This document shows positions 3,885 to 46,029 of a stretch of 64,000 nucleotides of DNA, one piece after another. The position numbers were made by a program, and so were the translations under genes. A model generated the notes under the pieces. It saw nothing but the letters and a program-made list of their open reading frames with translations. It was not told the DNA's origin and ran no database searches. The stretch is from a phage: the NCBI GenBank assembly GCA_038450185.1, contig GCA_038450185.1_4765.1; one strand, given 5' to 3'. Positions within the stretch are counted from its first letter, which is position 1; each line of letters starts with the position of its first letter.

Positions 3885-3913
3885 ATTATAGGGGATCACC
3901 GATCCCCTGTCAA
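3885..3913 (-). promoter_or_regulatory. sigma70-type early promoter, TTGACA-17-TATAAT, palindromic spacer
   Basis: -35 TTGACA and -10 TATAAT read on the minus strand; spacer GGGGATCACCGATCCCC. Confidence 0.6.
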
Positions 3914-6260: not shown

Positions 6261-6290
6261 ATTATAGGGGATCGGTGATCCCCTTGTCAA
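6261..6290 (-). promoter_or_regulatory. sigma70-type early promoter, TTGACA / TATAAT
   Basis: Spacer palindrome GGGGATCGGTGATCCCC. Confidence 0.55.
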
Positions 6291-10003: not shown

Positions 10004-10033
10004 CATTATAGGGGATCACCGATCCCCTGTCAA
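10004..10033 (-). promoter_or_regulatory. sigma70-type early promoter with GGGGATC..GATCCCC spacer
   Basis: Near-identical to promoter at 3885..3913. Confidence 0.55.
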
Positions 10034-24252: not shown

Positions 24253-25488
24253 TTATACTGCCATTTGAGCGGTGATCGCTGGATGGCTTTGATAGTTGTG
24301 AATTTTAAAGTCTTTCGGAGTCTTTGTCAATACCTCATCTAAAGACTTAAATTCCGGCAACTCAATTGTTGGTTTATCAAACGGAACACGGCTTAACTGT
24401 TCCATAACTTGATCAAAATGGTTTTTGTAAATGTGGCAATCCCCACACTGATAAACCAGTTCGCCAACTTCTAACCCGCAAATCTTCGCGATGATATGCG
24501 TTAACAGTGCATAGCTCGCTACGTTGAACGGATTCCCTAAAAAGAGATCATTCGAACGCATGAAAAATAAACAACTCAATTTGTTGTCGTTGGAAACATA
24601 AAACTGTACCATCGGATGACATACACCTAACACAGCATTATGCGTTTCCTGTACGTTCCATGAATCAATGATAATACGACGACTATACGGATCATTCTTG
24701 ATCATGTCAATAACTTTTTGTAACTGGTCTTCCCAAATCTTCGGGCGATAGACATATTCTTCATCGTCTTTAGTGCTTGATGTGTCTACGTCCATACTAG
24801 CAAAGATCGTGGTATCTGGTGCTAAAATATCCCCACCCAGATAATCACTATCAAGCAGATAACCGAAATAACCATCATCTACCCATTCCTGGAATCCCCA
24901 CAAGCAATATGCATCATTAACAAAATTAGATTGAGTCTTCCAGTGATCGGCTACTAAGAATTGATTATATTCAGAATCAAACTCTTCATAACGCATACCA
25001 CGCCAGATAGCACATAAACGGTCTTCTGTTTCATTGGTTGGCGTAAAGTCTTCTACCCACGGGTGCTTAAATGTATGTGCATATTTGCTCTTAACTCGCT
25101 TAATTTTGATTTCACCGTGTGGATGAATCGGTTTGCGTCGCCACGCCATACCATACATATTGCCGACATTATAACCATTGAATCGCAAGGGATTCTTTTC
25201 TTTCATATCAAGACAGTTGCCGCGCCAAATATCAAAGGCTTCCTCGTCAAACTTGCCGCGTGTAATTTCCTGTAAGCGACGGCGGTCAAGTGATCCCTCC
25301 ATAAACCATAGCAATTCGCCAATTACAGAGGCTGTAGCCATCTTTTTAGTGGTCAGTAAGGGGAAACCCTTGCTTAAGTCAATTCGCATTTCTGCACCGA
25401 ATTTAGAGAGCGTACCTACCCCCGTGCGGTCTTCACGAGGCCAGCCATTATCAAGAACATCACGCAACAGTTTCAAATATTCTTTCAT
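24253..25488 (-). CDS. td: thymidylate synthase with a large in-frame insertion
   Basis: ThyA motifs DRTGVGT, PLLTTKK, SRRIIIDSWNV, LGVCHPMVQFYV, RSNDLFLGNPFNVASYA; 411 aa against about 286 in T4. Confidence 0.8.
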   Translation of the reverse strand: MKEYLKLLRDVLDNGWPREDRTGVGTLSKFGAEMRIDLSKGFPLLTTKKMATASVIGELLWFMEGSLDRRRLQEITRGKFDEEAFDIWRGNCLDMKEKNPLRFNGYNVGNMYGMAWRRKPIHPHGEIKIKRVKSKYAHTFKHPWVEDFTPTNETEDRLCAIWRGMRYEEFDSEYNQFLVADHWKTQSNFVNDAYCLWGFQEWVDDGYFGYLLDSDYLGGDILAPDTTIFASMDVDTSSTKDDEEYVYRPKIWEDQLQKVIDMIKNDPYSRRIIIDSWNVQETHNAVLGVCHPMVQFYVSNDNKLSCLFFMRSNDLFLGNPFNVASYALLTHIIAKICGLEVGELVYQCGDCHIYKNHFDQVMEQLSRVPFDKPTIELPEFKSLDEVLTKTPKDFKIHNYQSHPAITAQMAV

Positions 25489-25750
25489 CCCACTTCCCCT
25501 TTTTCTTTGCTTTCTTACGCAGTTTTGCTACTGTCTCGCTAATGTTAATAAAAATATCGTCTGGACCGAATACAGTAACAGGTCTTGATATATCGCTATT
25601 TTCTTGTACAGGAAACCATGACGCTTTCGATTCATCATAGAGATATTGCAACCCGTAAAGATCTTCTGCTACTGCGTAGTTTTCATGGGTTGCCGACCAT
25701 AATCGAATAATACTGATTTTCATTATTGTTCCCGTCCGCAGTGTAAACAC
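25460..25750 (-). CDS. hypothetical small protein
   Basis: ORF between frd and td; start uncertain. Confidence 0.4.
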   Translation of the reverse strand: MFTLRTGTIMKISIIRLWSATHENYAVAEDLYGLQYLYDESKASWFPVQENSDISRPVTVFGPDDIFINISETVAKLRKKAKKKGKWDERIFETVA

Positions 25751-25816
25751 CGACTACCAGCAAACATCAAAGATTCACCACAATGTTTGCATTCATAATC
25801 TGTCAGAATTTTCATG

Positions 25817-26386
25817 TTACGCCTTCTTACGTTCTAAAATTTGTTCGCTGATCAGGTAATCATCAAGGAAGTAATTATGTTCTTCTTTTGTTGCAAAGTC
25901 AAAATATAATTCCTGAATCATTTCCTTAGAGATACCAACATCATATTCGAACGGATCATTAATTCCTGCTCGTTGAACATACGTTAACACAATACGGTCC
26001 GCAAAGTCAACCGCTTTTTCAATCAGGGAAGGTCCGCCGATAACACTTACCAAACCTTGCGTTTTCTCTAGGGCTTTTAACAGATCCTTCAATTCAATTC
26101 CAGTATACACATCAGGTTGGTCGCCGTTTTTAGCTTTCGGTTCTGGCTTGTTGGTATCGGTGCTAACAACCACATTCAAACGTCCCCAAAGTGCTTTAGG
26201 CAGACTTTCAAAGGTATTGCGTCCCATTACTACCGCAGAAAAATCAACCTCGCCAATAGTGCGGATTTGAAAGTTTTCCATATCTTTTTTGATTGGACGA
26301 CCCCACGGTAAACCGCCTTTAAAACCAAAAGCCCAATTTTCATCCGACATTTTAGTGTCACCAATAGCAAATACACATTGAATCAT
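25817..26386 (-). CDS. frd: dihydrofolate reductase
   Basis: FGFKGGLPWGRPIKKDMENF DHFR motif; 189 aa. Confidence 0.8.
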   Translation of the reverse strand: MIQCVFAIGDTKMSDENWAFGFKGGLPWGRPIKKDMENFQIRTIGEVDFSAVVMGRNTFESLPKALWGRLNVVVSTDTNKPEPKAKNGDQPDVYTGIELKDLLKALEKTQGLVSVIGGPSLIEKAVDFADRIVLTYVQRAGINDPFEYDVGISKEMIQELYFDFATKEEHNYFLDDYLISEQILERKKA

Positions 26387-26401
26387 AATATAAATCTCCC
26401 A

Positions 26402-26731
26402 TCAAATCAGTTTGAAATAGTTTTCGTTTACATTTTCTTCTGTGATTGCTGTCTTAAATTCTTGACCGTTATCCGGTGTGATGAAATAACGGTCAGAATA
26501 ATCACGAAAACGTTTTAAGTGAGATACACCAACATTAACACCATTTTCCCAAAAACGAAAGGTAATCATTTTTGGTTCATATCGATAGTCGCTGGTTAAC
26601 ACAGTACCATCACCGCGACGGGCTTCATAAACCGTAATACATTCACGATTGGCGGCTTTTAAGCATTCTTCAATAGTGCCGCACGAGATAATACTTACTT
26701 TTTCATCTACGATTTGTTCTACAGTCCACAT
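26402..26731 (-). CDS. hypothetical protein (109 aa)
   Basis: Internal ATG behind promoter. Confidence 0.45.
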   Translation of the reverse strand: MWTVEQIVDEKVSIISCGTIEECLKAANRECITVYEARRGDGTVLTSDYRYEPKMITFRFWENGVNVGVSHLKRFRDYSDRYFITPDNGQEFKTAITEENVNENYFKLI

Positions 26732-26762
26732 AATATAATCCTCTCTTTGTTTCGATATGTGC

Positions 26763-26790
26763 ATTATACACTATTGCGTTACGCTGTCAA
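26763..26790 (-). promoter_or_regulatory. sigma70-type early promoter, TTGACA / TATAAT
   Basis: -35 and -10 hexamers on the minus strand. Confidence 0.5.
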
Positions 26791-27795
26791 CTCTTTTTCA
26801 AAAGTTTTTACGATATACATGATAGTGCTCAATTCAGACGGCGCGACTGTTTCTGTGTAGCCATCCGGCATATCTTCTTTTGAGATATAGGAAGTTTTAC
26901 CTTTCATCGCTTCCTTGATCTTGTTCTCTAATTCTAAGATCTTTTGACCGTCTTGTAAAGTCAATTCATAAAAGATCTCGTGGTCGAATTTAGATTTCGC
27001 TGATTGGTTTCTCATTCGTTCTTGTGTTGTTAAATTGGTTATTCCAAATTTGATTCCATAAAAACATGATTTTTTAATTAGTTTTTGAATGTATAGTGTT
27101 CCGTGTTTTAAAGTGTTGTATCCAAATCTAGCACAACTTGAACATCTATTTCCTGATAGAAACCCGTTAATTGTTGGTGTAAATGTATGACCATTACAAC
27201 ATTGCAATTTTAATTTTGTTGTATTTCCTTTCCATTCACCTATAAATCCATTGAATAGTATGTTTTCTTTATCAAAGATTGGTTTAATTCTAATAATATA
27301 GTCATCTTTGGGTATTGATTTTAATTCTTTCAGTTTTAACCGGTAGCATTCTTGGCAGCGTCTTCCATTTTTGAAATTGTTAATTGTTGGTGTAAATGTA
27401 TGTCCATTACAACATTGTAGATTTAATTTTGTCGATGACCTTTTCCATTCACCTATAAATCCATTGAATAGTATGTTTTCTTTATCAAAGATTGGAGTTA
27501 ACTTATGTAGATGTTCATCTTCCGAAAAAGATTTCATCCTTCCATTCTTTATGTCTGCACATTTATGACAGCGATTTCCAGCGTTGAAATTGTTAATTGT
27601 TATTGTAAATGTATGACCATTACAACATTGCAATTTTAATTTTGTTGTATTTCCTTTCCATTCACCTATAAATCCAATAAACTTTATATTTTCTTTAAAG
27701 AATGTTGGTTTTAATTCTTCGTAGTAATTCACTGGAGATTTTGAATTGTGAGCTTTTCTAACCCATTCAATCTCATGTGCTTGACGTACTAACAT
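26779..27795 (-). CDS. T5orf172-like (GIY-YIG superfamily) protein with three tandem Cys-rich repeats
   Basis: Three copies of about 70 aa containing FIGEWKGNTTKLKLQCCNGHTFT..NRC..C; C-terminal GTLYIQKL...YGIKFGITNLTTQERMRNQ. Confidence 0.5.
   Translation of the reverse strand: MLVRQAHEIEWVRKAHNSKSPVNYYEELKPTFFKENIKFIGFIGEWKGNTTKLKLQCCNGHTFTITINNFNAGNRCHKCADIKNGRMKSFSEDEHLHKLTPIFDKENILFNGFIGEWKRSSTKLNLQCCNGHTFTPTINNFKNGRRCQECYRLKLKELKSIPKDDYIIRIKPIFDKENILFNGFIGEWKGNTTKLKLQCCNGHTFTPTINGFLSGNRCSSCARFGYNTLKHGTLYIQKLIKKSCFYGIKFGITNLTTQERMRNQSAKSKFDHEIFYELTLQDGQKILELENKIKEAMKGKTSYISKEDMPDGYTETVAPSELSTIMYIVKTFEKELTA
27160..27700 (-). repeat. three tandem direct repeats, about 210 bp each, inside the CDS
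   Basis: Near-identical blocks ...GTAAATGTATGACCATTACAACATTGCAATTTTAATTTTGTTGTATTTCCTTTCCATTCACCTATAAATCCA... at about 27170, 27380 and 27590. Confidence 0.75.
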
Positions 27796-27825
27796 AATTT
27801 TATCCTCCGTTGTTTCTATGGGTGC

Positions 27826-27853
27826 ATTATACATTACCACATCAGCATGTCAA
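27826..27853 (-). promoter_or_regulatory. sigma70-type early promoter, TTGACA / TATAAT
   Basis: -35 and -10 hexamers on the minus strand. Confidence 0.5.
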
Positions 27854-27881
27854 TACATTTTCATAAAATTTTATGCAATAA

Positions 27882-27906
27882 AAAAGCCTCCCCGAAGGAA
27901 GGCTTT
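27882..27906 (-). terminator. intrinsic terminator downstream of gene 32
   Basis: GCCTTCC-TTCGGG-GAGGC hairpin then T6 on the minus strand. Confidence 0.55.
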
Positions 27907-27914
27907 AAAATTCA

Positions 27915-28889
27915 TTACATCCCTAACAGAGCGTCAAGATCATCCAGATCAGAAGCGGAGGAAGTACCGCCACCCAGGTCCAGAGATGCCATCAGGTCAT
28001 CAGCGGAAGAATCTAACGCCGTGCTAGCTGCGTTAATACCAACTACAGTGCTAGCTGCGGTCATACCAGAATCGAATGCATTCATCTGTGCGTCAAAATC
28101 GTCAAGCTGGCTGTTAATCGCTGCCGCAGCACTGGAAGCCGCAGCACCAGCTACCATAGAAACGCCCATAGTTTTCTTAAATTTGGTTTCCAGTTCATCG
28201 AACGGTTTAAACTGGCTAGGCGCTACAATCTCACTCAGATCAACCATGTTTTCCATCAGATATTTCTGATATGCTTCGTCTTCAATTTTCGGAAGCTGTG
28301 ATTGCTGCATGAAACGAGAATCATCATAGTTCTGGTGTTTATCAACCTTCTTAGCTTTCAGGAGGAAGTTAGCACCGGAGAACACACAAGTTACATCGAC
28401 CGGAACTTCGCCCATGTCGGTATTCACGTTCACCATTGCAACGATCTTATCATAAATTTTCTGACCGAAGCGGAATTTGAATACCTTACCTTCATTTTCT
28501 GGTGCTTGAGGATCTTTCAGTACCAGAATATTTGCGTAGTAAGACGCTTTACGCTTAATCAGTTGCCATTCGGTTTTATCGGTATTGTACAAGTCTTTTT
28601 CGTTAATATATTTGCACACAGGGCAAGAATCAAAATCACCGTGGGTGCTAGAGCAGTTTTCCCAATACCATTTGCCATTAACTTTGAAGGAATGGTTTAC
28701 CAGTTTCACAATCGGCAGACCGTCTTCTGTCTTAGACGGCAGGAAGCGAATCAGGGCTTCACCGTTACCTGCTGCATCAGTCTTAATCTTCCACTCTTTC
28801 GGATCTTCTTTGGAGAAACCGTTGCCACCTTTCAGTGCGGCCAGTTGAGCTTGCAATTTGGAGCTATCTTGACGACGAAACATGTTCAT
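27915..28889 (-). CDS. 32: single-stranded DNA-binding protein
   Basis: IRFLPSK...[24 protein letters not shown] matches the T4 gp32 zinc-binding core; acidic C-terminus. Confidence 0.9.
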
Positions 28890-28949
28890 AATTATACCTC
28901 TTTATACATTAACTATTGATTAATTTACGTTTTATACTATATCAGATAC

Positions 28950-29546
28950 TTAATTGCTTGTCAATACTTTATCAATTATATCTAACAGTTTTGGCTTTCT
29001 ATTTTCAAATTCTAACATCTCTTCGGGAGAAATGTCAACTACTTCTGTTTTGTTGAAAAAGTTTGGGTCTATAGCATCAGCAACAAAGTTTCTCGCAAGT
29101 GCTGCCGCTTTCTCATGAACATATATTCCCAAATATATCAACTTCTTTCTTTCGACCTGAATATTGGCAACATATTTACCATCTCGTTTATAAAGACTAA
29201 CACCGATATATTCAGACGATCGACCTTTCTGTTTACCCATATTTCTTGAGTTTTGTTGCTCGTTCGCATCTCTCAAGTTTTCAATCCGATTATCTGTTAT
29301 AATTCGGTTAACATGGTCAACGTATTTTGGCATGTATCCATGATGCATAAAGAAAATTATTCTATGCTCTTTATGATGTTTACCATCGATACACACCAAT
29401 CTGTATCCATGACTAGGATTAACTCCACCAGCTCTAGATCCGACTTTATGCTTTCGGTTTGTCGATATCTTGCAAATCAGCTTACCGTTATCATATTTAA
29501 AGAGTTCATGACAACGAGCATACAATTCAGGATCATATGTTTTCAC
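28950..29546 (-). CDS. HNH endonuclease with AP2-type DNA-binding domain
   Basis: HNH motif HHKEHRIIF...DHVNRI..DNRIENLR; AP2-like YIGVSLYKRDGKYVANIQV...IYLGIY; lies between genes 32 and 59. Confidence 0.6.
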   Translation of the reverse strand: MKTYDPELYARCHELFKYDNGKLICKISTNRKHKVGSRAGGVNPSHGYRLVCIDGKHHKEHRIIFFMHHGYMPKYVDHVNRIITDNRIENLRDANEQQNSRNMGKQKGRSSEYIGVSLYKRDGKYVANIQVERKKLIYLGIYVHEKAAALARNFVADAIDPNFFNKTEVVDISPEEMLEFENRKPKLLDIIDKVLTSN

Positions 29547-30210
29547 CTTTTAACCTCGATATTTCTTTACACTCTTTAACTACTTTAACAAATAATGCTC
29601 TTGCTTTTGCGGCGTCAATAACAAGTAGTTTCTTGTACGCCTTCATTTTAACACTATAAGTTTGCCAAATCAAGTCTTTGGCTACCTTGTCGTGTTCGTC
29701 GATTATATTTAGAAAGCTATCTAACAACATAAACGACTCAAACGATATAATCCGATTTTGCAGTAGTTTAAAAATACCGCTTGTTTCGGTTGCGGGATTA
29801 TATGTAATTAGCTCTTTAAGAGTAACCCCGCGTTTCTCGGAGAAGTATACCAGACTTTTAATGTCATCGTCAAATCTTGTTGCTGCATCGGTTATCTTTC
29901 CTATGTATTCCATATAAAAGCCGTATGCGTCAACATCAGTGATTTCACCTACCCATGCATCGGTATTAGCTACCAGATTGCTTAGGAATAGGAAGTATAA
30001 TTCTCTTAGATTGTATTTTTCCGCTAATTTCGCGAAATAATACTTATCTCTGCGTTTATTGAATGCGGCATCAGATAACCGCATCCTCCAATTATATTTT
30101 ACGCAATCATAACGCCCGTTCATATGAGCTTTCATCATGCAATATAACATATACACAGATTTAGCATTAATTCGCATATCTGGATCTGGAGGAAGACGGT
30201 TTCTGATCAT
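29533..30210 (-). CDS. 59: helicase loader gp59
   Basis: Size (225 aa), position between 32 and 33, and similarity to the recalled T4 gp59 N-terminus. Confidence 0.65.
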   Translation of the reverse strand: MIRNRLPPDPDMRINAKSVYMLYCMMKAHMNGRYDCVKYNWRMRLSDAAFNKRRDKYYFAKLAEKYNLRELYFLFLSNLVANTDAWVGEITDVDAYGFYMEYIGKITDAATRFDDDIKSLVYFSEKRGVTLKELITYNPATETSGIFKLLQNRIISFESFMLLDSFLNIIDEHDKVAKDLIWQTYSVKMKAYKKLLVIDAAKARALFVKVVKECKEISRLKGENI

Positions 30211-30219
30211 ACATACCCC

Positions 30220-30489
30220 TTAAATATCGAGAGTGTTGGTCGGTTCGTCGATCACTCCCTTCCTGAGTGTTCTATTTACTATACATTCTTGTGTGATCTT
30301 GTCAATAATGGACACCGGAATATACTTCTGATAGTGACCATATTCTATAGAGTTTTCCTCTACAAACTGAGTGGTCGCTTCAAGATAAGTCAATCCCTCT
30401 TCAACAACCAGTTTTTCGATTGCAAGACCGTTTGCTGTTTTGTTCGCGGCTTTTACCGCATGTTCATTAAGCATTGAACACCCGATCAT
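30220..30489 (-). CDS. 33: late transcription accessory protein gp33
   Basis: Small acidic protein with EEGLTYLEATTQFVEENSI region at the T4-syntenic position. Confidence 0.5.
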   Translation of the reverse strand: MIGCSMLNEHAVKAANKTANGLAIEKLVVEEGLTYLEATTQFVEENSIEYGHYQKYIPVSIIDKITQECIVNRTLRKGVIDEPTNTLDI

Positions 30490-30742
30490 AGAGTTCTACC
30501 GCTTCGTCGCGTTCTGCTTCGAAGGTTTCGCGCTGTTGCTGGTGATACAGTTTAAACAGAATGCCCCACATTTTACCATCTACGCCTAATTCTTCTTTAG
30601 CACGCTGTTTGATCTCTTTGATCTTATCGCCATATGCTTCTTGAATTGTTTTCTGATCGCTGGCTTCTTTAATCAGTTGTGCCAGGGTATTTCCGTGTAC
30701 ATTTTCATCGAATACTACTTTTTCTTTTTTCTGTTCAGTCAT
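30467..30742 (-). CDS. dsbA: double-stranded DNA-binding protein
   Basis: 91 aa; KEASDQK...AKEELGVDGKMWGILFKLYH...ELYDRVF matches T4 DsbA. Confidence 0.7.
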   Translation of the reverse strand: MTEQKKEKVVFDENVHGNTLAQLIKEASDQKTIQEAYGDKIKEIKQRAKEELGVDGKMWGILFKLYHQQQRETFEAERDEAVELYDRVFNA

Positions 30743-46000: not shown

Positions 46001-46029
46001 ATTATAGGGGATCGCAGATCCCCTGTCAA
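46001..46029 (-). promoter_or_regulatory. sigma70-type early promoter with GGGGATCGCAGATCCCC spacer
   Basis: -35 TTGACA, -10 TATAAT. Confidence 0.55.

Follow-up and report, generated by a model that had tools for sequence, protein, structure and literature searches.

Homing endonucleases of the T5orf172 class have been described in which CapR/DUF723 zinc fingers are repeated and recombine with one another (PMC10448857). The gene gp174 of phage ICP1 shows a 228-bp in-frame deletion, and six repeats are present in phage Helene (PMC10448857). CapR binds DNA via pairs of cysteines, and zinc-dependent, sequence-specific DNA binding has been demonstrated for CapR only (PMC8096241). For the catalytic domain, the ICP1 protein Odn (Gp88) provides experimental proof that a T5orf172 domain is a nuclease, with the N-terminal domain determining where it cuts, and the substitution E180A abolishes its activity (PMC8263062). 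The gene analyzed here has the architecture already described for the ICP1 T5orf172 homing endonucleases (Netter 2021 PMC8096241; Barth 2023 PMC10448857) and therefore belongs to a known class.

The window, the whole 64,000-nt stretch of phage DNA that was analyzed, comes from a Krischvirus, an RB49-like coliphage, and is 99.1% identical to phage W115 at the locus. The gene lies on the minus strand between gene 32 and a frd.1-like ORF; as the first-pass annotation had pointed out, only the small ORFs frd.1, frd.2, and frd.3 are found between frd and 32 in T4 (T4 annotation). The ORF occupies 26779..27795 including the stop codon, begins with an ATG at 27795–27793, and encodes 338 aa, arranged as a leader, three zinc-finger modules, and a C-terminal nuclease domain. 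The protein matches the profile of PHROG 681, "endonuclease" (E 1.4e-73). Its N-terminal leader (aa 1–25, MLVRQAHEIEW..., 27721..27795, minus strand) is common to the one- to six-module alleles discussed below. Neither tblastn nor HMM searches of the six-frame ORFs revealed a paralogue of either domain elsewhere in the window, and an Rfam search of 25000–30500 gave no match.

Three consecutive modules of about 70 aa had been proposed from the first reading of the sequence, and three tandem modules of 71 aa (213 nt) were found. Tandem Repeats Finder placed the array at 27166–27697 (period 213, 2.5 copies, 80% matches, score 685), and a repeat search recovered a 156-nt core three times at 213-nt spacing, two copies being 81% and 78% identical to the reference copy. 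In protein register, the repeat units correspond to aa 26–96, 97–167, and 168–238. The three tandem repeats are real and far above chance, but the earlier description of them as near-identical in DNA was overstated: nucleotide identity is 78–82% in the cores and 66–69% over whole units, with 72–78% and 58–61% at the amino acid level, respectively. Units 1 and 3 share an exact run of 73 nt, and units 2 and 3 one of 54 nt.

The Cys-rich repeats match the Pfam CapR homology domain PF21817 in three stretches (80.7 bits against a cut-off of 24.2, E 9e-23), and the DUF4379 treble-clef model also scored above its cut-off (25.1 vs. 24.5). These matches identify the repeats as CapR-homology, treble-clef zinc-finger modules. 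Each contains two putative zinc-ligand pairs in the pattern C-x3-H, 14 residues, C-x2-C. On the minus strand, module 1 (aa 26–96, 27508..27720) carries the putative ligands C57, H61, C76, and C79; module 2 (aa 97–167, 27295..27507) carries C128, H132, C147, and C150; and module 3 (aa 168–230, 27106..27294) carries C199, H203, C218, and C221 and abuts the nuclease domain without a linker. All nine cysteines are invariant among 23 three-module relatives, and the ligand histidine is kept in every module of five alleles. The divergent modules of RB49 have CxC or Cx2C where Cx3H is expected. A structure model of the full-length protein gave a pLDDT of 90.9 with a pTM of 0.41, which indicates confidently modeled domains with loose relative placement.

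The C-terminal domain (aa 231–338, 26782..27105, minus strand) had been likened to the T5orf172 branch of the GIY-YIG superfamily. No match was obtained for it in Pfam at E<=1, as part of the whole protein or isolated, nor in NCBIfam, nor among PDB sequences with phmmer and a 21-sequence profile. The connection is made instead through homologous domains. Of 21 diverse homologous C-terminal domains, 16 match MUG113 and 13 match T5orf172 (Pfam, E<=1). The window domain matches one such homologue, P0050, at a library-wide E of 2.2e-16, and P0050 exceeds the MUG113 (PF13455) cut-off at residues 421–479 (25.9 bits vs. 22.3). In the homologous region, P0045 also reaches MUG113 (22.6 vs. 22.3), and P0053 and P0067 reach T5orf172 (PF10544; 20.4 and 21.8, respectively, vs. 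20); all of these scores are marginal, and the link to the window domain is transitive. A word-indexed protein search with the domain alone returned only eight close matches, the distant relatives being recovered by exhaustive search. The model of the C-terminal domain (pLDDT 95) has a beta-beta-alpha-beta-alpha core, and its best matches among solved structures are GIY-YIG nucleases. Profile and model together support the view that the segment is a divergent relative of T5orf172/MUG113 within the GIY-YIG superfamily, as first suggested. Sequence and profile similarity does not extend to canonical members: the window protein does not match PF01541, which only 3 of the 21 relatives match (best E 1.8e-4), and the hhalign probability was 0.4% for T4 I-TevI and 0.1% for SegG. 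When the full-length model was compared with the PDB by Foldseek, nothing matched at E<=0.001; the best of the weak matches, tandem dsRNA-binding-domain proteins with a TM of about 0.1, were taken as noise. Ten residues of the domain are invariant (Y235, K249, G251, R260, E290, D311, G312, T314, E315, and T316). They include the conserved Tyr in strand 1, the Lys-x-Gly (K249-F-G251) in strand 2, the Arg in helix 1 (R260), and the two Glu (E290, E315). By analogy with Odn, we infer catalytic roles for Y235, K249/G251, R260, E290, and E315. Conservation of the nuclease-domain residues is complete in hundreds of relatives, implying selection on catalysis.

The gene also has its own promoter, as had been claimed: a perfect sigma-70 sequence of the early type (TTGACA-16-TATAAT, 12/12 consensus) at 27826..27853 on the minus strand, just after the terminator hairpin of gene 32 (27883..27906, same strand). 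A Shine-Dalgarno sequence, GGAGGA, can be read at 27803..27808 (minus strand), 7 nt before the ATG. A longer reading frame from a GTG at 27840 is an unlikely start because this codon is within the promoter, upstream of its -10 hexamer at 27831–27826. A second perfect sigma-70 promoter, at 26763..26790 on the minus strand, serves the downstream frd.1-like ORF, and its -35 hexamer doubles as the Leu-Thr codons of the conserved C-terminus, ...KELTA*.

The slot flanked by gene 32 and the frd.1-like ORF proved polymorphic on comparison with related phages; at least 59 Krischvirus records matched, in addition to metagenome contigs. Phage W115 (ON286974) carries an identical 338-aa protein, W115_107, and a metagenome contig encodes a 338-aa protein that is 99% identical (P0009). 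The slot is empty in phage PHB13, holds an unrelated 109-aa ORFan in MIZ6, kvi, and 011D4 and a Rha/DUF559 gene in pEJ01, and contains a decayed, frameshifted copy of the gene in MIZ4. Other Krischvirus slots hold intact alleles with 1, 2, 3, 4, 5, or 6 modules (196, 267, 338, 400, 471, and 541 aa, respectively). The expectation that the repeat number may vary between isolates is thus borne out; five sizes were confirmed at this one locus, and the sixth, the two-module allele, is known only from a 1-kb contig. Modules are more similar within an allele than between alleles, and the arrays diversify fast while the nuclease domain remains 80–87% identical.

Taken together, we consider it probable that the gene is a free-standing gene of the homing-endonuclease type, of the T5orf172/CapR class. 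In this scheme, the gene would be transcribed early from its own consensus sigma-70 promoter. The three CapR-type modules would form an N-terminal "beads-on-a-string" array that reads a long DNA site, and the GIY-YIG-fold domain would cut near that site via its conserved Tyr, Lys-x-Gly, Arg, and Glu. When two phages infect the same cell, a related genome without the gene, or with a different allele of it, would be cut by the enzyme, and recombinational repair would copy the gene and its gene 32/frd neighborhood into the cut genome. Recombination between its own repeats would let the array evolve, giving the alleles of one to six modules, and a change in module number would presumably shift target specificity. 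The sporadic presence of the gene at a fixed site in close relatives, including a decayed copy, is consistent with the earlier suggestion of a free-standing mobile endonuclease; DNA binding, cleavage at a target, and homing are predicted functions of the 338-aa protein.

Several observations run against homing. The C-terminal domain lacks a direct Pfam, NCBIfam, or PDB sequence match. T4 free-standing endonuclease genes reportedly never use early promoters (PMC2988022), unlike the gene here with its perfect early-type promoter. The flanks were also compared between nine genomes with the gene and five without it. No column in 25817–26790 or 27796–28889 separates carriers from non-carriers, which indicates no co-conversion tract or target-immunity polymorphism in this small sample and within the roughly 1 kb covered on each side, cleavage sites of free-standing enzymes being able to lie further away. 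Identity profiles of the flanks in 80-nt bins showed no gradient. The variable 3' part of gene 32 (28036–28115) was considered as a mark of homing and rejected, since PHB13 and kvi, both without the gene, are identical to the window there.

Finally, the gene could be gained and lost through the flanking repeats without any nuclease, which leads to the strongest alternative. The gene may be the cargo of a promoter-flanked (PeSL-type) cassette that is gained, lost, or swapped by homologous recombination between the two early-promoter/RBS segments bracketing it, its own nuclease playing no part in its spread. This explanation is compatible with the homing-endonuclease one; we regard it as possible but doubtful. 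A direct repeat of 71 nt brackets the gene, with an upstream copy at 27810..27880 and a downstream copy at 26747..26817 that is 70% identical to it, and each copy contains a 12/12 sigma-70 promoter. The hairpin, consensus early promoter, and Shine-Dalgarno sequence directly upstream of the ORF form a PeSL-like cassette (PMC2839356), where a PeSL subclass with the hairpin upstream of the -35 has been described. The empty site of PHB13 holds a single, hybrid-looking copy of the repeat, and the same borders enclose the 109-aa ORF or the Rha/DUF559 gene in the phages with alternative occupants. The window contains 11 perfect promoters against 0.12 expected, all on the minus strand, and four of them have the palindromic spacer typical of PeSLs. 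ORFan cassettes in RB49 and phi1 are known to move by such recombination, PeSL-mediated mini-circles are documented in both phages (PMC2839356), and the lack of any flank SNP linked to gene presence fits this route as well. Conversely, a stem-loop is missing from the downstream copy, and the two copies are only 70% alike. Selection on catalysis, implied by the conserved nuclease residues, also speaks against this route, and the class adjoins essential genes in many unrelated phages without PeSLs (PMC10448857).

It is unlikely, though conceivable, that the gene is instead a domesticated weapon like ICP1 Odn, its nuclease kept for cutting a competitor (co-infecting phage, satellite, or host DNA) and its array tracking the competitor's sequence. 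Odn is a T5orf172 nuclease in such use (PMC8263062), the perfect promoter predicts early and strong expression, and the fast diversification of the array beside a stable nuclease domain would suit a moving target. Salmonella and E. coli chromosomes also carry homologues (P0045, P0048, P0049), and the nine-to-five comparison of flanks is without a homing signature. Against this, many close relatives are viable with the gene missing, replaced, or decayed, which fits a dispensable selfish gene better than a weapon. PADLOC returned no convincing defence-system match; a Type I specificity subunit match of 20 bits, with no stretch passing alone, was regarded as chance.

We think it very improbable that the protein, descended from an endonuclease, now works as a DNA-binding regulator whose fingers turn a promoter down or up and whose C-terminal domain has ceased to cut. 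CapR itself is such a case (PMC8096241), I-TevI doubles as an autorepressor, and the gene is situated among promoter-rich early regions. However, CapR is a DNA-binding part resembling only the N-terminal domains of the nucleases, whereas the nuclease domain is present here with every invariant residue intact. That the three-module repeats are an assembly artefact, a doubt raised by the first-pass annotation, is close to inconceivable, as we found no point in its favor, the same three-module protein occurs in the independent isolate genome of W115 and in the metagenome contig, the reading frame is unbroken across all modules, and other assemblies hold alleles with different module numbers.

A more speculative idea, to which we give little credence for now, is that the one- to six-module series, seen at a single locus of nearly identical phages, is a natural, fast-evolving DNA-recognition array in which recombination of modules re-targets the nuclease, with gain and loss via the promoter repeats. 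Only a few positions within the 71-aa modules are hypervariable, and through these each CapR module could recognize a set number of base pairs. The enzyme could be re-targeted as its modules undergo unequal crossing-over and gene conversion with one another, and the whole gene could come and go via the flanking promoter repeats rather than by classical homing. Should there be a module-to-sequence code, this family would provide programmable nucleases with a new scaffold. The series provides, in E. coli phages that are easy to grow, one nuclease naturally fitted with one to six modules, and it could be used to test finger number against target length and homing against promoter-cassette spread. 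The assignment of the gene leaves current understanding unchanged. It gives a concrete class to a gene that is labeled "hypothetical protein" in W115 and JEP8 and that RB49 and GEC-3S annotations call just "endonuclease". It also adds RB49-like coliphages and phage T5 to the range of the CapR/T5orf172 homing-endonuclease class, known so far chiefly from vibriophages.

Among known systems, the T4 Seg and I-TevI endonucleases share the fold superfamily and the modular design of nuclease plus DNA-binding part. SegG is likewise free-standing beside gene 32, and in T4, too, the promoter of a downstream gene can be embedded in an endonuclease gene (PMC2988022). They differ in showing no sequence or profile similarity to the window protein (hhalign probability below 1%), in the reversed domain order of I-TevI (nuclease N-terminal), in the position of segG between 59 and 32 rather than 32 and frd (T4 annotation), and in their middle or late promoters (PMC2988022). 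The PeSL cassettes of RB49 and phi1 (Arbiol 2010 PMC2839356; Comeau 2014 PMC4122927) have the same order of stop codon, hairpin, early promoter, Shine-Dalgarno sequence, and start, a related promoter segment downstream, and alternative occupants and an empty site in close relatives. Their cargo is mostly small ORFans as opposed to a nuclease gene, and the downstream motif of the window differs in lacking a hairpin and in overlapping the ORF end. The ICP1 origin-directed nuclease Odn is alike in its T5orf172-type catalytic domain with conserved Arg and Glu, but it has a RepA_N domain instead of zinc fingers and is an anti-satellite weapon. PLE CapR, the satellite repressor of the ICP1 capsid operon after which PF21817 is named, has a homologous zinc-finger module; it is the DNA-binding part only and a repressor, whereas the window protein joins three modules to an apparently intact nuclease.

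Other proteins have both domains. In phage T5, AAX12067.1 ("RB49ORF238c-like protein") has two CapR modules and the same C-terminal domain (29% identity to the window protein over 254 aa, E 1e-26), but its gene is located in the tail gene cluster. RB49 ORF238c (RB49p240, "endonuclease") is the orthologue at the corresponding position and shares the nuclease domain, differing in its five much more divergent modules and its length of 485 aa. RB49-type phages were not found in those supplementary files of PMC10448857 that were searched. The ICP1 T5orf172 genes (gp174, gp165, gp121, gp53, and gp130) resemble the window gene in their CapR-type N-terminal finger or fingers, often repeated, in the T5orf172-like nuclease domain at the C-terminus, in being free-standing beside essential replication genes, and in repeats that recombine and change the module number. 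Unlike them, the window gene resides in the Straboviridae, in Krischvirus, and its C-terminal domain represents a sub-branch with the signature DGYTET that the Pfam T5orf172 model barely detects. Also unlike the ICP1 genes, it is bracketed by early promoters, and alleles of 1, 3, 4, 5, and 6 modules, a series of at least five steps, occupy one Krischvirus locus, with a two-module allele known from a short contig.

The 338-aa ORF on the minus strand (ATG at 27795, stop codon at 26781–26779), with a GGAGGA 7 nt 5′ of its ATG, most likely encodes a homing-endonuclease-type enzyme, which is the best-supported reading of this gene. A longer version of the ORF starting from a GTG at 27840 was discarded because this codon lies within the gene's promoter. 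The coordinates, the length, and the three tandem units reported in the first-pass annotation were correct. Its description of the units as near-identical was too strong, as whole units (aa 26–96, 97–167, and 168–238 in protein register) shared 66–69% identity in DNA and 58–61% in protein. Their 46-aa cores were 78–82% identical in DNA and 72–78% in protein, and the linkers between cores were far less similar. Tandem Repeats Finder identified one array at 27166–27697 (period 213, 2.5 copies, 80% matches, score 685), and a repeat search identified three 156-nt copies spaced 213 nt apart, with 81% and 78% identity to the reference copy. Units 1 and 3 shared an exact run of 73 nt and units 2 and 3 one of 54 nt, a mosaic that points to gene conversion between them. 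Over 1.7 kb, the region shared 99.1% identity with Escherichia phage W115, an RB49-like member of the Straboviridae (genus Krischvirus) that encodes an identical 338-aa protein labelled as hypothetical. A 171-kb metagenome contig also encodes a 338-aa protein with 99% identity (P0009). Since both carry the same protein, an assembly artefact was ruled out as the origin of the repeats.

Each repeat appears, from its sequence, to be a zinc-finger DNA-binding module. Pfam identified three CapR-homology domains (PF21817; 80.7 bits against a cut-off of 24.2, E 9e-23), along with a marginal match to the treble-clef DUF4379. The modules followed the pattern KP(I/T)F-x-KENI-x-F-x-GFIGEWKG-xx-TKL-x-L-x-C-x3-H-x-F-x-P-x-I-xx-F-xx-G-x-RC-xx-C, and each then continued into a linker of ~20 aa. 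Across 23 three-module relatives, three Cys in every module were invariant. The His was found in all modules of five alleles, and divergent RB49 modules contained CxC or Cx2C where others have the His. In the full-length AlphaFold2 model, a module consisted of a helix, three short strands, a short helix, and a linker helix. The model was locally confident (mean pLDDT 90.9) and globally not (pTM 0.41), as expected of a beads-on-a-string protein. Searched against the PDB with Foldseek, the full-length model returned no significant match.

The C-terminal domain has a divergent GIY-YIG fold of the T5orf172/MUG113 type. This resemblance, proposed at first pass, was supported by way of homologues and the modelled fold, the domain's own sequence having no Pfam match. 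Residues 221–338 alone had no match in Pfam, in NCBIfam, or among PDB sequences and showed no profile similarity to T4 I-TevI or SegG. Searching 1.84 billion representative proteins exhaustively identified 439 relatives at E ≤ 0.001, and each of the 150 listed (77–621 aa) had the domain at or near its C-terminus. Among 21 diverse homologous C-terminal domains, 16 matched MUG113 and 13 matched T5orf172 at E ≤ 1 (best E 1.7e-6 and 6.6e-7, respectively). A further 100 full-length representatives yielded matches to CapR (61), DUF4379 (49), MUG113 (36), DUF723 (32), and T5orf172 (13). Curated cut-offs were passed in the homologous stretch by several relatives, all marginally (among them P0050 with MUG113, 25.9 against 22.3 bits; P0053 with T5orf172, 20.4 against 20; P0067, 21.8 against 20). 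An AlphaFold2 model of the domain, built from the 21-sequence alignment (pLDDT 95.0, pTM 0.87), had a beta-beta-alpha-beta-alpha topology followed by a loop and a helix. It matched 81 predicted viral structures at E ≤ 0.001, the best 50 of these 81 with TM 0.73–0.98 and probability 1.00. Named matches included "CapR homology domain-containing protein", "Homing endonuclease", "GIY-YIG domain-containing protein", and [quoted passage not shown]. Invariant residues were Y235 (strand 1), K249-x-G251 (strand 2), R260 (helix 1), E290 (helix 2), and the signature D311-G-x-T-E315-T. By sequence comparison, these match the superfamily set Tyr / (Tyr or Lys)-x-Gly / Arg / Glu, with E290 and E315 as candidates for the metal-binding Glu. 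Odn of ICP1, the only tested T5orf172 enzyme, cleaves DNA as a purified protein and loses this activity on a Glu-to-Ala change (PMC8263062).

Repeat number differed between isolates, as the first-pass annotation had anticipated. Within the sub-lineage having the window's leader peptide, alleles formed a ladder of one module (196 aa, Hadza gut contig), two (267 aa, P0012), three (338 aa, window and W115), four (400 aa, L010), five (471 aa, L009), and six (541 aa, JEP8). The one-, four-, and five-module genes were confirmed between gene 32 and the 109-aa ORF plus frd, and the three- and six-module genes occupy the same slot. The source of the two-module allele is only a 1-kb contig; five sizes were thus confirmed at one locus. 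Modules were more alike within an allele (76–81% nt identity in the window, 68–85% in L009) than between alleles (56–73% for the window's modules), which argues that arrays expand and homogenise in place. Module variation clustered at a few positions.

Neighbors were frd (PF00186), the 109-aa ORF at the frd.1 position (PHROG 16287), and gene 32 (PF08804). The 109-aa ORF (26402–26731, minus strand) had no Pfam match and was kept in all Krischviruses examined, being much more divergent (66–88% identity) in the Hadza gut contig. In T4, the frd–32 interval contains only frd.1, frd.2, and frd.3, as stated at first pass, and segG sits across gene 32 (T4 annotation). Among Krischviruses, the slot that separates gene 32 from the frd.1-position ORF is a swap site. 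It is empty in PHB13 and holds an unrelated 109-aa ORFan in MIZ6, kvi, and 011D4, a 145-aa Rha_N + DUF559 (Vsr-like endonuclease) gene in pEJ01, and, in MIZ4, a frameshifted remnant that retains one finger plus the nuclease domain. Intact genes in RB49 (485 aa), GEC-3S (392 aa), and JK32 (412 aa) have very different arrays and C-terminal domains 80–87% identical. The pEJ01 gene (L013 1964–2401; N-terminal Rha DNA-binding domain 34.6 bits, C-terminal DUF559 23.5 bits) is a second, unrelated nuclease-type cassette within the same borders. The decayed MIZ4 copy spans L012 1979–2905; the nuclease domain of its annotated 182-aa ORF shares 51% identity with that of the window, and the ~380 nt 5′ of this ORF contain finger-like pieces in other frames, broken by stops.

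Across gene 32, a 198-aa HNH_3 + AP2 ORF (28950–29546, minus strand; Pfam E 2.2e-11 and 7.2e-5; PHROG 99 "HNH endonuclease") sits between gene 59 (29533–30210) and gene 32, the T4 segG position, so that gene 32 is flanked by two endonuclease-type genes. This ORF was missing in W115, RB49, JEP8, GEC-3S, MIZ6, and PHB13 and was found in MIZ4, pEJ01, and L009; kvi probably also has it, as a hypothetical protein at that position. The gene 32 start and leader (28836–28935) occurred in two versions of the RBS region and first ~25 nt, with 93–98% identity in genomes with the HNH ORF and 83% in those without, JK32 being the exception. The two versions may reflect a co-conversion tract of the HNH gene or a difference in immunity at its target. 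The Ala/Ser-rich C-terminal coding region of gene 32 contains a 21-nt direct repeat (28021–28041 and 28048–28068; 90% identity, 27 nt apart). The 3′ part of gene 32 is its most variable stretch among Krischviruses (60–100% identity), and this variation did not track with presence of the finger-nuclease gene.

The first-pass claim of an own promoter was borne out by a 12/12 sigma-70 match at 27853..27826 (minus strand), 3′ of the gene 32 terminator hairpin (27906..27883) and followed by the SD and ATG. This hairpin–promoter–SD–ATG order is the PeSL layout of RB49 and phi1 (PMC2839356). A second 12/12 promoter, for the downstream ORF, was found at 26790..26763 (minus strand), its −35 TTGACA doubling as the Leu-Thr codons in the conserved C-terminus KELTA*. 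Together, the two promoter/RBS segments make up a 71-nt direct repeat (70% identity, 1063 nt apart), and the empty PHB13 site has a single copy resembling a hybrid between them. Perfect promoters numbered 11 in the window, every one of them on the minus strand, compared with 0.12 expected by chance. Four of the perfect promoters (3885–3913, 6261–6290, 10005–10033, and 46001–46029, minus strand) had the GC-rich palindromic spacer GGGGATC..GATCCCC, the canonical PeSL motif of RB49-type phages.

Four lines support the homing-type reading: domain architecture, conservation of the catalytic set, the pattern of presence, absence, and decay, and published work on the class, in which CapR was found to bind DNA via its Cys pairs (Netter 2021, PMC8096241) and fingers to be repeated (Barth 2023, PMC10448857). 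From these we infer cleavage, a target, and homing. Bound to a long DNA site through its finger array, the enzyme would cut next to that site with its GIY-YIG-fold domain; repair templated by the carrier genome would then spread both the gene and its surroundings. Counting against homing, no site within ~1 kb on either side separated nine carriers from five non-carriers, and the ~1-kb flanks showed no identity gradient. Either the target lies elsewhere, or tracts were erased by recombination, or turnover occurs via the promoter repeats. The last, shown for RB49 ORFan cassettes, is a serious alternative that would account for the absent flank differences and is compatible with homing. Less likely readings are a domesticated weapon resembling Odn of ICP1 and a pure regulator of the CapR kind.

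As a homing-type gene, it joins a class that is already known. Repeated CapR/DUF723 fingers are common among T5orf172 homing endonucleases, and the repeats recombine (Barth 2023, PMC10448857). The RB49 and GEC-3S orthologues are already called "endonuclease" in RefSeq; part of the supplementary files of the 2023 survey yielded no Krischvirus genes. The module ladder, with five sizes at one locus and a two-module allele, and the promoter-repeat bracketing are mildly interesting additions. A phage T5 relative was annotated in 2005 as "RB49ORF238c-like" (AAX12067.1; 265 aa, L017 1051–1848, just upstream of tail gene pb2; 29% identity, E 1e-26) and has two CapR modules, with a C-terminal domain of the same DGYTET type as in the window protein. 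It likewise had no Pfam T5orf172 match, so the Pfam model under-detects the DGYTET sub-branch. Free-standing endonuclease genes of T4 are reported to have middle or late promoters, never early, and some contain embedded promoters for downstream genes (PMC2988022). The window gene parallels them in its embedded downstream promoter and differs in its early promoter.
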